Shown here one piece after another: positions 11,063 to 23,649 of a stretch of 24,513 nucleotides of DNA. Under the pieces are notes generated by a model that saw nothing but the letters and a program-made list of their open reading frames with translations, made no database searches and had not been told where the DNA came from. The position numbers and the translations under genes are program-made. This DNA is from a virus: UHGV virus genome UHGV-0864142; one strand, written 5' to 3'. Each line of letters begins with the position of its first letter. The stretch's first letter is position 1.

Positions 11063-11593
11063 TCACACCATTCCGGGCAAATACATTTGCACTTCATTTG
11101 CCGCTCTCTCACGTGCAACATGAAGCAATCTTTTTCGCCCACCAACGCCCCACTTAGCCATTTGGCTTGCGCACTGGCTTATCGCTTTGGTTTCAGTATT
11201 GATGATGTGATCGATTCTATTCAGACGGGACATTGCGCCAACGCCGAGACGGACGACCGTTTTGAAAACTTCATAAACTTCGATTTCAAATTCCGGCTTA
11301 ATCCATGCTGCATATCTGATTGCCAGAAGTTCAACACCCCACACACCTGGTTCTGCACCACCTTTGATTATTTTAAGTGGTTGAATTTGTTCCAAAGTGC
11401 TTTTTTGCACTTTGGCCTCCAGTGCTTTTATGAAGCGTTTTATCTGCGCGCTACGCAAAAACTGGCTTGGGCGCTGTTGCTCTGTAGCCTCTCCATTTGC
11501 AACTGCTGCTGCATGGAGATCGTTTAAGTTGTAGCGTCCATCCTCATCAACACGAACGGACACACCATTGACAATAACTGTTGGGTACTTCAT
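11063..11593 (-). CDS. KilA-N domain protein (176 aa)
   Basis: N-terminal VNGVSVRVDEDGRYNLNDLHAAA...QRPSQFLRSAQIKRFIKAL is typical of KilA-N (APSES-like) DNA-binding domains. ATG at 11593. Confidence 0.7.
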   Translation of the reverse strand: MKYPTVIVNGVSVRVDEDGRYNLNDLHAAAVANGEATEQQRPSQFLRSAQIKRFIKALEAKVQKSTLEQIQPLKIIKGGAEPGVWGVELLAIRYAAWIKPEFEIEVYEVFKTVVRLGVGAMSRLNRIDHIINTETKAISQCASQMAKWGVGGRKRLLHVARERAANEVQMYLPGMV

Positions 11594-13846: not shown

Positions 13847-14470
13847 CTAACGTGTGACCGCATTCAAAATGTTGTCTGCGATTGACTCTTCTTTGTGGCA
13901 TTGCACCACCAGAGCGTCATACAGCGGCTTAACAGTGCGTGACCAGGTGGGTTGAGTAAGGTTTGGGATTAGCATCGTTACAGCGCGATATGCGGCGCTT
14001 GCTGGCATTCTTGAATAGCCGACACCTTTGCATCTTCCGCACTCTTTCTCAACAACTCTCCCCCACTGCTCTGTTTTGGCAATATCAACCGCCCGACCTG
14101 TACCGTGGCAATCTCTGCATCTTGCACCCGGCGTCGCGGCACTACGGCAATAATCCGCATAAGCGAATGTTGCGAGCACTTGCAGCACCTTTGCCTTAGT
14201 ATTTCCTTCGAGCTTTGCCACACCACGGTATTTCCCCGATACCTTGTGTGCAAATTGCATCAGATAGTTGATAGCCTTTTGTTTGTCGTTCTGGCTGAGT
14301 TCGTGCTTACCGCAGAATGCAGCCATTCCGAATCCGGCTTGTGATTGCGCCATCCCCATAGCTGCCATCACATCAGTACCGGAAAGAGAGTCAGAAGCCG
14401 TGGCCCGTGGTGAGTCGCTCATCATCGGGCTTTTTGGCGAATGAAATTTAGCTACGCTTTCGAGTCTCAT
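13847..14470 (-). CDS. Q: Late antiterminator Q (lambda-type, 207 aa)
   Basis: Near-identical to lambda Q over the whole length as recalled (MRLESVAKFHSPKSPMMSDSPRATASDSLSGTDVMAAMGMAQSQAGFG...). ATGA overlap with ninH. Confidence 0.97.
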   Translation of the reverse strand: MRLESVAKFHSPKSPMMSDSPRATASDSLSGTDVMAAMGMAQSQAGFGMAAFCGKHELSQNDKQKAINYLMQFAHKVSGKYRGVAKLEGNTKAKVLQVLATFAYADYCRSAATPGARCRDCHGTGRAVDIAKTEQWGRVVEKECGRCKGVGYSRMPASAAYRAVTMLIPNLTQPTWSRTVKPLYDALVVQCHKEESIADNILNAVTR

Positions 14471-14655
14471 CGTCTTCCCCTCTTGCCCTGTTTGACCATC
14501 AGGACGCCGTTAACTATTACATGACACTCGCCTTTGCTGTCTCGGTTGTACTTGAGCACTGTTCCTCTTGCGCAGGAAAGCATCCTTGCCACTTCGGTCT
14601 GATTGCCTCGTGTCTGGATAAGAAGCTCTGGTATCGTTTGAATTGTGGCGTTCAT
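14467..14655 (-). CDS. ninH: NinH (62 aa)
   Basis: TIPELLIQTRGNQTEVARMLSCARGTVLKY...IVNGVLMV resembles lambda NinH as recalled. Position directly upstream of Q. Confidence 0.8.
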   Translation of the reverse strand: MNATIQTIPELLIQTRGNQTEVARMLSCARGTVLKYNRDSKGECHVIVNGVLMVKQGKRGRR

Positions 14656-15014
14656 GCGTTCTCCAGTTCGGTGATTTTTATTCCAAGCCTTCCGCCTGGT
14701 ACTTTCACACCACGAATTACGCGAATGTCATCGAATTGCTCGTCGTCTTCCGCAAATCCGGCATGGATAAGGGAGTCGAGTAAACCTTTCAGGATGTTAT
14801 CGAGGTCGCGGCGGCGGGAGTCTGGAACGTCTGCGATGACTTTTATGCGGAGTCGTGATTTGGTGAAAATGTCTAACTTGAGTTGGCGGATGATTTGCTG
14901 AACGTCTTTTCGGTATTTCTGGCCTTTATCGCTGATGTAGTATTGGCTTCCCCGTCTTCGCCAGTAGGTGTTCACCGACGGCGGGTATGGAAGCACAAAC
15001 TGATATTCGTTCAT
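14652..15014 (-). CDS. rusA: Holliday junction resolvase RusA (120 aa)
   Basis: LPYPPSVNTYWRRRG...DVPDSRRRDLDNILKGLLDSL...GGRLGIKITE matches the RusA family (DLP12 RusA as recalled). Confidence 0.9.
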   Translation of the reverse strand: MNEYQFVLPYPPSVNTYWRRRGSQYYISDKGQKYRKDVQQIIRQLKLDIFTKSRLRIKVIADVPDSRRRDLDNILKGLLDSLIHAGFAEDDEQFDDIRVIRGVKVPGGRLGIKITELENA

Positions 15015-15301
15015 GGCTTAATCTTCCCCTCCTTCAGCAGTATCGCCTGCGTCCTGATCACGCCTTCCAGGTGGTAAAGTCTGGCGTCTTTGTTGTCGAG
15101 GTTATGGGTGCGTCGGTCGATTTCATCGTGACACGCGCTACAAGCCCATGCTCCGATCAGGTCGTCAGGTTTCATTCCCGTTCCGCAAATTCCAGCCATC
15201 CGGTAATGTGCCAGAACTGTAGTTTCAGGGTTGCCATTGCATACGCCGTAAATACGTACCTGGCATTCTCTGCCGCGTGCTTCTTTGCGTAGATTAGCCA
15301 T
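15011..15301 (-). CDS. ybcO: YbcO-like Cys-rich protein (DUF1364 family, putative nuclease), 96 aa
   Basis: 96 aa, Cys/His-rich, directly upstream of rusA as in E. coli DLP12 ybcO-rusA. Family call from recall and synteny. Confidence 0.7.
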   Translation of the reverse strand: MANLRKEARGRECQVRIYGVCNGNPETTVLAHYRMAGICGTGMKPDDLIGAWACSACHDEIDRRTHNLDNKDARLYHLEGVIRTQAILLKEGKIKP

Positions 15302-16023
15302 TAAGCAGCCTCCCCTGTTACTTTCAGCATTCCGTTATCGAGCAGCTTTCTGGTCAGCCACTGTTGACCACGCCCGGTGATTTTTGTGGTGAACGATATC
15401 TGTATTCCGTGATTTGTGTTGACCGCTGTTTCTTTCACTGTGAAATAGCCGCGCTCCATATATTCCTGCATTGGCACATTTCGCCGGGAACCTGAAGCAA
15501 TAAGGATTTTGTGATCTCGCATCCACGCAAACAGTTTGTTTGGACCAATTCCAACAACCTTTGCAAAGTTTCCAATCAAAATTCCGCTGGCCTCGCCAAC
15601 GCGATCGGCAAACTCAACTTTAGGTGCGGCAATTGCGAGCTGGTTTTCCAGTTGCATTTTCTGCTCAGCAAGGTCAGCAGCAAGGCGCAACGCTTCTGGT
15701 AGCGTTTTTGGGATATTAACCGCAGCTTCTTCAAGCTCTCGCCAGCGGTCAACAAGGCGAGCGGTGAACTCTGGCGACAACTGGGCAACAACGACAATAC
15801 TGTCTCGCTTACCTTGTTCGCCTTCGAAAACGTAATGCTCGTACTGAACATTGAACCCTAAGTTATTGATTCTTTCGGAAACCTCAATTTGAGGAAGCCG
15901 GATAACACCATTTTTAGCCAGCGTTTCGATGGTACGTTTCACATTGTCATGACGCTTACCCACCAACTCAGCGATTTCAATGCTTGTCATTTTGATGGCA
16001 TTGCCATTTATTAACTCATTCAT
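15301..16023 (-). CDS. Phage antirepressor: Rha-family N-terminal domain fused to KilAC C-terminal domain (240 aa)
   Basis: N-terminal IKMTSIEIAELVGKRHDNVKRTIETL is a Rha-type regulatory domain. The C-terminal half is KilAC-like (Ant C-terminal domain). Domain calls from recall. Confidence 0.7.
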   Translation of the reverse strand: MNELINGNAIKMTSIEIAELVGKRHDNVKRTIETLAKNGVIRLPQIEVSERINNLGFNVQYEHYVFEGEQGKRDSIVVVAQLSPEFTARLVDRWRELEEAAVNIPKTLPEALRLAADLAEQKMQLENQLAIAAPKVEFADRVGEASGILIGNFAKVVGIGPNKLFAWMRDHKILIASGSRRNVPMQEYMERGYFTVKETAVNTNHGIQISFTTKITGRGQQWLTRKLLDNGMLKVTGEAA

Positions 16024-16192
16024 CGTCTTCTTCCTCGTACATTGAGCTATTCGGATCGCTCATCAGTTCTGCGCAGCAGTGCTCACACATGTGAACTTCC
16101 AGCACATGCAGCTTCTGACCGCAGTTAGCGCACGTTAAAGCCCGCTCGACGCTTTCTTTCTGGTATTGAAGGGATTGGGATGGGCTAAGCAT
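16016..16192 (-). CDS. ninF: NinF (58 aa)
   Basis: Not in the supplied track. Translates [58 protein letters not shown], matching lambda NinF as recalled. Stop overlaps the antirepressor start by 8 nt. Confidence 0.8.
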   Translation of the reverse strand: MLSPSQSLQYQKESVERALTCANCGQKLHVLEVHMCEHCCAELMSDPNSSMYEEEDDE

Positions 16193-16556
16193 TATTGGCG
16201 TCCTGAATCATGAGAAATACAATCATGGCGGCGCGGAGGGGATTTTCATGTATAGCTCGCTTAGATTTACAGTAGGCCACACCGCGTGCACCCCACTCGT
16301 CTTCATCGAGATTGATAATGCTAATCCTGTATTTTTCAATAATCGGCCATGCGTCTGCTGGGTTTGCGCATGGGTTAAAGGAACCGCGCTCAACTTCTAC
16401 TTCAACTGCGTCTCCGTTTACAATGTCTCCCTCAAATGAGACAAACACCATATCGCCATTCTCACCTTCTTTGTAATCCGGTGATCCGTTATGAATAGCT
16501 TCGAATACAGCCACGTTAATTTCAAAATCACTTAACTGTGAATAATCCATTGTCAT
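16185..16556 (-). CDS. Hypothetical acidic protein (123 aa) in the ninX position between ninE and ninF
   Basis: ATG 16556 forms an ATGA overlap with the ninE stop; the track ORF extends upstream but that would overlap ninE by 40 nt. Family not recognised. Confidence 0.55.
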
Positions 16557-16729
16557 TTCCTCGCACGATGTCTTAGCCACCGGATATCCCACAGGTGAGC
16601 CGTGTAATTGAAGGTTTTTACGTCAGATTCTTTTGGGATTGGCTTGCGTTTATTTCTGGAGCGTTTCGTTGGAAGGTATTTGCAGTTTTCGCAGATGATG
16701 TCGGTGAAACTTCGTCGCTGTCGTCTCAT
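16553..16729 (-). CDS. ninE: NinE (58 aa)
   Basis: [58 protein letters not shown] matches lambda NinE as recalled. ATG 16729 forms an ATGA overlap with the methyltransferase stop. Confidence 0.8.
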
Positions 16730-17253
16730 GCCGCCCTCCTGACGCCCTGCCCGATCGCCATCAATGCCGCTTTGGATACGGTAGTAAACATCCGTCGAGG
16801 ACTGATGAACGGTCGCCAAATCAGCAGCATGGAGCCTTTACTGTTTCCCTTCTTCTCCAGCCCTGTCGATGGTTCGATAAAATTAATCCGTCCATCAGTG
16901 ATAATGCGAACTTCGTCAACACTCTCCAGAGCCTTGCTGAACCATCCGACAGACATATCCTCTGGCACAAGCATCACTACCGTCTGTCGCTGTTGTATGC
17001 TCTGCTCAGCGGCTTTTTCCACCCACGGCCTGATATTGCTGTACGGTGGGTTATTCCAGATTGCACCGTGGCTTATCCACTCAGAATTGAGCGCGTCGTC
17101 GGCCTCAGTTAGCCAGTGAGCACACAGAGCATTTTTGTCGCTCGCTGCCGAATCCAGCCAGAATCCAAACTCAATATCCAGTGCATCAAAAAGCCAAAGC
17201 GGCGTTTGCCAGCAGTCCTTGTCGTGTGCTGGCGTATTTGATTTGATAGTCAT
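16726..17253 (-). CDS. Phage DNA N6-adenine methyltransferase (Dam-like), 175 aa
   Basis: NPPY motif (WNNPPYSN) typical of N6-adenine/N4-cytosine MTases, plus a [13 protein letters not shown]-terminal region. ATG 17253 forms an ATGA overlap with the ninB stop. Occupies the lambda ninC/ninD position. Confidence 0.78.
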
Positions 17254-18629: not shown

Positions 18630-18664
18630 CCAAATAAAAAGGCCTGCGATTACCAGCAGGCCTG
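18630..18664 (-). terminator. Intrinsic terminator downstream of helicase gene (tR2-like position)
   Basis: Minus-strand AGGCCUGC-UGGUAAUC-GCAGGCCU (perfect 8-bp stem) followed by UUUUUAUUU. Confidence 0.6.
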
Positions 18665-21190: not shown

Positions 21191-21469
21191 TTAGGCCTCG
21201 AAGAATTCGCCGTTCTTCGGGGCTTTTTCTTTTGTCAGCATTCTGGCTACTTTCTTAGCCAGTTCCGCCAACTCCTCGTCTTCAACACCCCATTCAAGAA
21301 CAGCCAGAAGCATTCCCATTTTTGGGATGAAGCTGTCTTTCCATCGCGAAATTTGCGATTCATTAATCCCTAACGCGTCGGCAACCTTTCGCTGACCACG
21401 TACAGCAATTCGATTCAGGATGTTGCTTGTAATTGCATTCGCTTTCTTGCGAGTACTTGTAAGTTGCAT
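21191..21469 (-). CDS. cII: CII-like transcriptional activator (92 aa)
   Basis: Resembles lambda CII as recalled (ILNRIA..G..K.A...G...SQISRWK...IPK..MLLAVLEWGV.D...A.LA..VA). Confidence 0.85.
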   Translation of the reverse strand: MQLTSTRKKANAITSNILNRIAVRGQRKVADALGINESQISRWKDSFIPKMGMLLAVLEWGVEDEELAELAKKVARMLTKEKAPKNGEFFEA

Positions 21470-21878: not shown

Positions 21879-22595
21879 ATGGAAAATAAAAAATCACTGA
21901 CGACAGAACAGCTCGAAGACGCTAAGCGGCTTAAGGCTTTGTATGAGTCAAAAAAGAAAGAATTGGGAATAACCCAATACTCAATCGCTGATGAACTGGG
22001 TATCACCCAAGGAGCGGTAGGGCATTATCTTAATGGCAGAAATGCGCTAAACGTTGAGGTTGCATCTGGTTTTGCACGATTATTGCAAGTCTCAATTGCT
22101 GATTTTAGCCAGTCAATTGCTGCCAAGGTTGCAGAACAGGCAGAAAGCCTTAAGAGCGATGCCAACGTAAGGTATGCAGGGGAATACAGAGCAGGAAAGA
22201 GGTATCCGGTGTTAAGCAGTATCCAGGCTGGCTCGTGGTGTGAAGCATGCGAACCATACACCATTAAAGACATAGATGTTTGGCTTGAGTCTGACGCGCA
22301 TATTCAAGGTAATGCGTTTTGGCTTAAAGTGGAAGGTGATTCAATGACGGCACCGGTTGGGTTAAGCATTCCAGAGGGAACATTCGTTCTTTTCGATACC
22401 GGAAGGGAGGCGATCAACGGCAGCTTGGTCATAGCAAAACTTTCTGACTCTAACGAAGCAACATTCAAGAAGCTGATAATCGACGGCGGAAATAAATACC
22501 TCAAGGGACTTAACCCTGCATGGCCTCTCGTGCCAATCAATGGAAACTGCAAGATTATAGGCGTTGCAATTGAGACAAAACTAAGGCTGGTTTGA
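21879..22595 (+). CDS. cI: CI-type prophage repressor (HTH plus LexA-like S24 autopeptidase domain), 238 aa
   Basis: Ends resemble lambda CI as recalled (KK.LT.EQLEDA.RLKA.YE.KK.ELG; FWL.VEG.SMTAP; FKKLI.D). Ala-Gly cleavage site (SIQAGSW), catalytic Ser in GDSM and Lys in FKKL. Recognition helix region differs, implying distinct immunity. Confidence 0.92.
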   Translation: MENKKSLTTEQLEDAKRLKALYESKKKELGITQYSIADELGITQGAVGHYLNGRNALNVEVASGFARLLQVSIADFSQSIAAKVAEQAESLKSDANVRYAGEYRAGKRYPVLSSIQAGSWCEACEPYTIKDIDVWLESDAHIQGNAFWLKVEGDSMTAPVGLSIPEGTFVLFDTGREAINGSLVIAKLSDSNEATFKKLIIDGGNKYLKGLNPAWPLVPINGNCKIIGVAIETKLRLV

Positions 22596-23349: not shown

Positions 23350-23649
23350 ATGACAGTAGTCATTACATATCTGGCTGACGATAACGCCAGAAATCGCCGC
23401 AGAGCACGCAGACAGGCTCAACGTGAACAGGCAATGCAAGAGCAGCGACTGGCGCGAAAAATTGCGCTAAAGCTCTCTGGTTGCGTCAGAGCAGACAAAG
23501 CAGCATCACTCGGAAGCCTTCGCTGCAAGAAGGCAGAAGAAGTCGAGCGTAAACAGAACCGTATTTACTACCGCAAGCCACGCAGTGAAATGGGGGTGAC
23601 TTGTGTTGGTCGCCAGAAAATGAAATTAGGCAGCAAACCACTTATTTGA
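23350..23649 (+). CDS. N: N-type transcription antiterminator (99 aa)
   Basis: Arg-rich N-terminal motif (NARNRRRARRQAQREQ). C-terminal ...RKQNRIYYRKPRSEMGVTCVGRQKMKLGSKPLI resembles the lambda N C-terminus (...RKNQRTWYSKPGERGITCSGRQKIKGKSIPLI) as recalled. GGAGG SD. Confidence 0.85.
   Translation: MTVVITYLADDNARNRRRARRQAQREQAMQEQRLARKIALKLSGCVRADKAASLGSLRCKKAEEVERKQNRIYYRKPRSEMGVTCVGRQKMKLGSKPLI

Follow-up and report, generated by a model that had tools for sequence, protein, structure and literature searches.

The closest described relative of the gene considered here is roi of the lambdoid phage HK022. Its product reportedly carries a helix-turn-helix and binds site-specifically inside its own gene, adjoining a site for integration host factor (IHF). 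The binding is said to be stabilised by IHF, and single substitutions in roi reportedly permit HK022 to grow on IHF-deficient hosts. Papers that cite Clerget and Boccard (1996, J Bacteriol 178:4077) call HK022 Roi a DNA-binding protein with an effect on lytic growth in IHF mutants. In this study, we analysed the counterpart of this gene in the virus genome UHGV-0864142, a stretch of 24,513 nucleotides (hereafter the window) that is, over its whole length, a mosaic of P22-like phages of E. coli. The open reading frame at 15301-16023 is roi, encoding the Roi protein of HK022/HK97/HK620-type lambdoid phages, a gene that is already known and very common. The window protein is 100% identical to a protein of phage Kapi1, 99% identical to HK620 Roi and, over its full length, 88% identical to HK022 Roi. 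What the analysis adds to this known gene is a candidate self-targeting operator rule, in which a palindrome within roi follows the predicted recognition helix of the protein, and the recognition code that would go with it. The gene and its two domains are placed as follows.

15301..16023, minus strand: roi, a 240-amino-acid Rha and KilAC DNA-binding protein, assigned from the list of open reading frames, Pfam, PHROG and the identity to named Roi proteins
15727..15990, minus strand: Rha domain (Phage_pRha, PF09669), residues 12-99; Pfam E 6.3e-9, 36.7 bits against a cut-off of 29.9
15340..15648, minus strand: KilAC domain (ANT, PF03374), residues 126-228; Pfam E 9.8e-33

These matches bear out the two domains named in the initial annotation, which had read the gene as an antirepressor. 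The best PHROG match (phrog_63, 3e-99) is indeed called 'anti-repressor Ant'. For roi, however, 'antirepressor' is a label given by homology, and it is misleading for this gene, which several of the matched phage records name roi, with the product 'DNA-binding protein Roi'. A sequence search of the PDB with Roi returned no match at E ≤1.

The gene is part of a widespread module. A megablast search with positions 14400-16700 matched 435 phage records, with equal gene order in HK620, HK022, HK97, CUS-3, N7, Kapi1, Gally and the mEp phages, and the order ninF-roi-hkbD-rus-ninH-Q is common to HK620 and HK022. Of 5426 complete E. coli genomes, 2428 matched some part of this 2.3-kb module and 431 covered at least 80% of its length. 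Two protein clusters (98-99% identity) hold 2355 and 1265 member sequences. Roi homologues are also present in Salmonella phage SETP3 and Vibrio phage ICP1, both of which are virulent phages.

The intragenic dyad and the helix predicted to read it

All amino-acid differences but one between the Roi proteins of the window and of HK022 lie within residues 22-65. Nucleotide identity is about 60% within this patch and about 98% outside it, and 114 close homologues show 29 variants of the patch. In the KilAC part, the window and HK022 alleles share 99% identity, though the two phages belong to different genera. Among E. coli alleles, too, the KilAC half is nearly invariant whereas the Rha cassette is variable. 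AlphaFold models built with 23 close homologues had a mean predicted local distance difference test score (pLDDT) of 45.6, with the N-terminal domain alone usable, and those built with 129 diverse sequences a mean of 74.0. They show a winged helix, with helices at residues 14-21 and 25-37 and a β-hairpin at 45-52/58-67 (pLDDT 80-93 over residues 11-100 with the 129 sequences), and long helices that connect the Rha domain to the C-terminal KilAC domain. The Rha domain is predicted to be a winged helix-turn-helix with residues 25-37 as its recognition helix. The elements within this domain are listed below.

15829..15960, minus strand: variable, putative specificity cassette, residues 22-65, with several allelic forms (alignment of the window with HK022)
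15913..15951, minus strand: predicted recognition-helix codons, residues 25-37 (H-D-N-V-K-R-T-I-E-T-L-A-K), from the AlphaFold models
15882..15894: candidate Roi operator, a perfect 6+1+6 dyad CCTCAA-a-TTGAGG at roi nucleotides 130-142, codons 44-47 (P-Q-I-E)
15859..15871, minus strand: match to the IHF core consensus AATCAATAACTTA (WATCAANNNNTTR) at roi nucleotides 153-165, in the wing-tip codons I-N-N-L (residues 52-55)

The dyad lies 25 nucleotides past the recognition-helix codons, where it encodes residues 44-47 at the start of the wing. Its 6-nucleotide arms were missed by a generic repeat search and came to light through the comparison of alleles, as seven of the eight compared have a dyad centred on roi nucleotide 136, in four different sequences. 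There is one copy of the perfect dyad in the window and one in the entire HK620 genome. The dyads of other named phages are as follows.

HK022 roi: CTGCA-t-TGCAG, nucleotides 131-141, centred on nucleotide 136
WGPS6 roi: CCTGCA-t-TGCAGG
Stx2_14040: CCCCA-a-TGGGG
Stx1_132418: CAATTTCCACAG-a-CTGTGGAAATTG
ENT47670: TCCTCAA-a-TTGAGGA

For the wider family, the N-terminal 100 amino acids were aligned and the alignment was run against one genome per species, which gave 80 loci from γ-, β- and α-proteobacteria, with 53-100% identity. A perfect dyad was defined by arms of at least 5 nucleotides and a spacer of at most 3. The dyads of these loci concentrate at one place: 64 fall into the 3-nucleotide bin at reference nucleotide 135, and any other bin holds at most 8. 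Within 4 nucleotides either side of the site, a dyad was observed in 68 of the 80 loci against 4.5 expected from synonymous recoding of the same peptides. By this measure, the dyad at this codon position is conserved at synonymous sites across the Roi-like Rha family. Of the 68 dyads, 59 have a spacer of one base, and the symmetry therefore reaches through the centre. The dyad tracks the Rha domain whatever the C-terminal domain, Rha being present in 75 of 76 members and KilAC in 42 of 76. No further operator copies were found in the window, in HK620 or, for 66 of the 68 family loci, within 1.5 kb; this absence rules out promoter-proximal Roi operators nearby.

Several loci depart from the common form. 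Only two, both from Chromatium okenii (L099, L102), have a second copy of their own half-site (CTCAAgTTGAG), about 1.4 kb downstream of the dyad. Some of the loci scored as dyad-less (L142, L155, L159) have hybrid sites with halves of different classes, e.g., CCACCA-t-TGGAGG and CCCCCA-a-TGGTGG; these may be recombinants or heterodimer-type sites. In the Stx1a phage Stx1_120412 (L084 1501-2223), roi is a pseudogene, a CAA to TAA change within the dyad both truncating the protein and destroying the palindrome. In Stx1_132418 and Stx2_14040 (L088 and L089, both 1501-2208), a Roi-type Rha N-terminal domain is joined to a different C-terminal domain. This fusion gene directly follows cro, in the cII position, and is followed by a gene for an ASH + Rha protein annotated as antirepressor; in Stx1_132418, it has a 25-bp perfect palindrome at the equivalent codon position. 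The window gene itself has a second perfect 6+1+6 palindrome, ATGGCA-a-TGCCAT, at 15995-16007 (roi nucleotides 17-29), just past the start of roi. It is common to HK022, absent from the Stx-phage alleles, and may be due to chance.

Comparison of helix types (residues 26-35) with half-sites across the family loci and the named phage alleles showed that the two pair one to one:

DNVKRTIE[TS]L: CTCA[AG], 35 loci with at least 19 wing types
xNV[KR][IVT][SAT]IxRL: CTGCA, 9 loci
DSVKRTIERL: CACC[AG], 10 loci
DKVKQSI[ED]RL: CCCCA, 7 loci
DNVKR[TA]IERL: CTCC[AG], 3 loci
[SI]DV[KM]RSI[ED]RL: CGCCA, 2 loci
SDVKRTIDML: CGCAA, 1 locus
DSVKRTIETL: CACAG, 1 locus (Stx1_132418)

The correspondence can be followed position by position. 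With N, S, K or D at residue 27, base 2 is T, A, C or G, respectively; base 3 is C with RT at residues 30-31 and G with [IV][SA]; and base 4 is A with T/S at residue 34 and C with R. Such a combinatorial, factorial pattern is what direct readout predicts, and it fits a helix that reads its half-site base by base. Since the gene thus carries a dyad matched to the recognition helix that it encodes, the N-terminal domain would seem to be directed at DNA and not at a repressor protein.

The IHF core at 15859-15871 lies 11 nucleotides beyond the dyad, inside the variable cassette, and is the sole perfect match in the window. It persists at the equivalent place in otherwise diverged alleles. Eighteen loci have an I-[NS]-x-L-G wing tip; all 18 use ATC for Ile and all 18 use TTA for Leu, and 16 match the full core; the consensus-free positions vary (AAT/AAC, the middle codon and GGN). 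Other wing classes lack the motif, and IHF dependence should therefore belong to one subclass, the window included.

These observations can be drawn together into a general proposal whose chances we regard as evenly balanced. Roi-like Rha regulators across the Proteobacteria, of which HK022 Roi would be the sole studied example, may be self-contained cassettes in which a palindromic operator, about 25 nucleotides past the codons of the helix that reads it, follows a code of residue 27 for base 2, residues 30-31 for base 3 and residue 34 for base 4. One subclass would have an IHF site in the wing-tip codons, and specificity and target would be inherited and exchanged as a unit. The protein would control transcription through its own gene, towards Q in lambdoid phages. 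No earlier description of such a rule, or of an intragenic operator in Rha proteins, was found in the searchable literature, from which most of the older phage literature is absent. The proposed self-targeting operator rule is statistically strong across the aligned family and is possibly undescribed.

Proposed autogenous binding and competing explanations

Our best model is that Roi binds autogenously at the intragenic dyad with IHF, as feedback or as a roadblock upstream of Q, and we give it a probability of roughly 0.6. A Roi dimer would bind the dyad through helix 25-37, and IHF would bind beside it and stabilise the complex, as reportedly happens with HK022 Roi. The complex would act in cis on the operon, either by negative feedback or as a transcriptional roadblock, and would limit Roi and possibly Q. 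Without IHF, this control would fail, and excess Roi, with its KilA-like C-terminal domain, would block lytic growth. Because the putative operator lies within the specificity-encoding segment, protein specificity and site would move as one cassette in phage recombination.

Several points weigh against this model. A roadblock does not readily account for the direction of the IHF phenotype, in which growth needs IHF, and the model leaves the function of the KilAC domain unexplained. One IHF core in the 24.5-kb window is at chance level (mean 1.17 expected). For the window gene alone, synonymous recoding yields a dyad at that position in 0.9% of cases and anywhere in the gene in 25%, which is not significant; the significance therefore stems from the family and not from this sequence. 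Within the family, 12 loci, and the 933W-type allele besides, are without a perfect dyad, and the 80 loci are related to one another. Finally, part of the covariation between helix and dyad is linkage, since the two are only 25 nucleotides apart.

The strongest competitor, although still rather doubtful in our estimate, leaves the Rha domain to act on the phage's own DNA and has KilAC act on the host, dampening RecA/SOS and tuning prophage induction, in the manner of Listeria AriS. It is compatible with our best explanation for the N-terminal half of Roi, and the protein has the AriS-like layout of an exchangeable N-terminal phage domain and a C-terminal KilAC domain (Pfam; family definition in PMC9043618). 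The KilAC domains of AriS and of two homologues inhibit the SOS response when overexpressed, and the phage itself is the target of the N-terminal domain, which is exchangeable and may be AntA, Bro-N or pRha (Azulay et al. 2022, PMC9043618). This inhibition of SOS, and not derepression, is the sole experimental precedent for KilAC that we found (PMC9043618). The near-invariant KilAC half beside a variable Rha cassette and the S24-peptidase, RecA-dependent cI of this phage point the same way. However, the evidence is drawn from Firmicutes, relies on overexpression and concerns proteins not directly compared with Roi, and AriS at its native level did not inhibit SOS (PMC9043618).

The initial annotation had proposed that Roi is a true antirepressor, directed at the repressors of co-resident prophages or at the lysogeny decision of its own phage. 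Binding and inactivation of CI-type repressors, whether of heteroimmune prophages or of the phage itself, would probably run through KilAC, and we consider it improbable. In its favour are the name 'anti-repressor' that both PHROG 63 and NCBI give the family, and the KilAC domain of P1 Ant1, a protein whose reported target is the C1 repressor. This action of Ant1 is also cited in PMC9043618. Expression from the delayed-early operon would, moreover, supply Roi at induction, when an effect in trans on neighbouring prophages is conceivable. A Pfam scan at E ≤0.01, however, found none of the domains P22_AR_N, P22_AR_C, AntA and ORF6N in Roi. In the Stx2 phage WGPS6, roi is directly preceded by a gene annotated Ant (L085 752-1426), which combines ORF6N with P22_AR_C and is of a different family; the window has no gene like it. 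The closest characterised orthologue, from HK022, is described as a DNA-binding protein, and the homologues in the virulent phages SETP3 and ICP1 also speak against a role in derepression. Within Roi itself, the variable part follows the helix-matched DNA dyad, and the KilAC part stays 99% identical between window and HK022 despite the difference in genus. Expression from an own promoter, under the control of LexA, Mnt/Arc or the like, before the loss of the phage's own repressor is not seen either, given the overlapping junctions and the lack of a promoter-like site in a crude scan. Because those junctions lie in the pR operon, behind a tR2-like terminator and with no promoter-like site, Roi would be made only after its own cI is inactivated. 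Without a promoter of its own and with an S24-peptidase cI, it could not initiate the induction of its own prophage. Repressor binding by Roi is reported in no paper that we found, and the antirepressor reading finds no support here.

It is less probable still that the conserved dyad acts in RNA, as a hairpin serving mRNA stability, pausing or processing, or that it is a recombination hotspot at the boundary of the cassette. The arms of 10-12 nucleotides in some family members would give stable hairpins. The wing types reassort relative to the unit of helix and dyad, and a crossover zone would therefore be nearby. The window region, however, folds no better than shuffled sequences (z -1.45; 18 of 200 shuffles as good), and the dyads that are symmetric up to one central base (59 of 68) would be useless as a loop and are typical of dimer sites. 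Taken together, the fold and the single-base spacers favour a dimer site in DNA over a hairpin. Neither an RNA nor a recombination role predicts the combinatorial match of half-sites to recognition-helix residues.

The correction of the label is of consequence by itself, as thousands of genes in E. coli and Salmonella prophages are annotated 'antirepressor', yet the one close relative that has been characterised binds DNA site-specifically. If autogenous binding and its code are true, a very large family of phage regulators that is still poorly understood would gain a recognition code open to direct testing, and the frequent exchange of alleles at the N-terminal patch of roi would have a possible explanation. 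The long-known need of HK022, φ80 and P22 for IHF owing to roi or rha would likewise have a possible mechanism. Binding and code would also suggest a control point just upstream of Q, setting the timing of late genes and, in Stx phages, toxin expression.

Operon context and modularity

The pR delayed-early (nin) operon includes roi, which follows ninF, precedes the resolvase genes and lies behind a tR2-like terminator and upstream of Q. All genes in this part of the window are on the minus strand; those next to roi are listed here in order of transcription.

16016..16192, minus strand: ninF (Pfam PF05810); it overlaps the start of roi by 8 nucleotides, junction ATGAATGA
15011..15301, minus strand: ybcO/hkbD (DUF1364, putative nuclease; Pfam PF07102, E 1.8e-44); HkbD is at the equivalent position in HK620
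14652..15014, minus strand: rusA, Holliday-junction resolvase (Pfam PF05866, E 1.1e-16; PHROG 34); HK620 rus is at the equivalent position
14467-14655, minus strand: ninH (Pfam)
13847..14470, minus strand: Q, late antiterminator (Pfam PF03589, E 1.3e-57), the final gene of the operon, downstream of the roi dyad

Upstream of roi, in order, are NinF, NinX, NinE, a Dam-type methylase and NinB. In the sequence itself, the roi/ybcO junction reads TAATG, a 1-nucleotide overlap at 15301 that suggests translational coupling, and ATGA stands at the ybcO/rusA, rusA/ninH and ninH/Q junctions. The anatomy given in the initial annotation is thus correct, including its tight ATGA and TAATG junctions, its gene order and its placement in the delayed-early nin operon. 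A crude consensus scan found no promoter-like site on the coding strand near roi. An intrinsic-terminator-like site within roi, at 15585-15601, was taken as chance, as the scan gave 9 sites against 6.0 expected.

The same annotation had placed one block of roi, ybcO and rusA in the stead of λ ninG. The block does occupy that position, as the λ order is NinF-NinG-NinH-NinI-Q, but ybcO-rusA alone replaces ninG. Eighty IMG/VR contigs, which all carry one roi allele and so inform on context and not on allele diversity, have the order ninF-roi-ybcO-rusA-ninH in about 70 and ninF-roi-ninG in about 7; in Stx phages, too, the order is roi-ninG-ninH-Q. Since ninG follows the same roi allele elsewhere, roi would be an independent insert after ninF. 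By gene order, the block is therefore two separable modules and not one: the roi insert, and a putative recombination/repair module of ybcO and rusA in which one junction resolvase appears to have been swapped for another. RusA preceded by YbcO/DUF1364 is found as a pair in HK620 and HK022 as well.

Other features of the window are worth recording. The nin operon has two optional inserts with ATGA/TAATG junctions, a Dam-type N6-adenine methyltransferase (PF05869, E 4e-64; 16726-17253, minus strand) and NinX (16185-16553, minus strand). They are present in only some of the 80 IMG/VR relatives, of which only 2 share the exact order of the window. Between the DnaB-like P gene and the nin genes, at 18640-18663 on the minus strand, is a strong terminator-like hairpin (AGGCCTGC...GCAGGCCT) with a T run, the positional counterpart of HK620 tR2. 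The immunity region holds cI at 21879-22595 on the plus strand (HTH_3 and S24 peptidase, the RecA-cleavable type) and the CII protein at 21191-21469 on the minus strand; a weak Pfam match at 23350-23649 marks a possible N protein. In the near-identical Gally prophage, antisense transcripts in macrophages extend from Q up to roi, which is suggestive only.

Relation to known systems

The system most like that of the window is HK022 Roi, at 88% identity, which also lies between ninF and hkbD-rus-ninH-Q and has the IHF core at roi nucleotide 153 and a dyad centred on nucleotide 136. It differs in the allele of residues 22-65, its helix being S-N-V-K-V-S-I-D-R-L where the window has D-N-V-K-R-T-I-E-T-L. 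Its dyad is CTGCA-t-TGCAG where that of the window is CCTCAA-a-TTGAGG, and a different DNA specificity is predicted. The P22-like Lederbergvirus phages of E. coli (HK620, Kapi1, N7, CUS-3 and Gally) have essentially the same roi (protein 99-100% identical, module DNA 97-98%), to which the window adds the optional Dam methylase and NinX found in some relatives only.

Further relatives are φ80 Rha and P22 orf201 (Henthorn and Friedman 1995), the product of which inhibits phage growth in IHF-deficient hosts (PMC4936722). They share with Roi a Rha-family domain and, with HK022 Roi, the class of phenotype; unlike roi, P22 rha is located in the late operon. In the window, a 176-amino-acid KilA-N protein (PF04383, E 7e-18) is encoded in the late region, flanked by the lysis genes and the terminase genes (11063-11593, minus strand). 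This position is that of HK620 hkbK ('similar to P1 KilA') and of the late-operon rha of P22, and the window phage holds the two halves of P1 KilA in separate genes, KilA-N there and KilA-C in roi.

P1 KilA and Ant1 share the C-terminal KilAC domain with Roi, whose residues 73-234 match the P1 kilA region at 58% identity by tblastn. They have KilA-N or AntA instead of Rha at the N-terminus, and their genome context and regulation are different; it is for P1 Ant1, and not for Roi, that antirepressor activity has been shown. P22 Ant and the Ant of Stx phages are likewise phage-encoded, the latter in the nin region directly upstream of roi, but their ORF6N and P22_AR_C domains are both missing from Roi. 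Listeria AriS has the two-domain layout of Roi, with an exchangeable phage-specific N-terminal domain, for which a pRha variant is noted, ahead of KilAC (PMC9043618); it differs in its AntA/AntB N-terminal domain and its Firmicute host. For the mode of action proposed here, the controller protein C.Kpn2I is a functional analogue only. It is a small helix-turn-helix regulator that, according to the title of the report, acts as a transcription-elongation roadblock on its own gene, and it belongs to an unrelated family and a restriction-modification context (PMC6237814).

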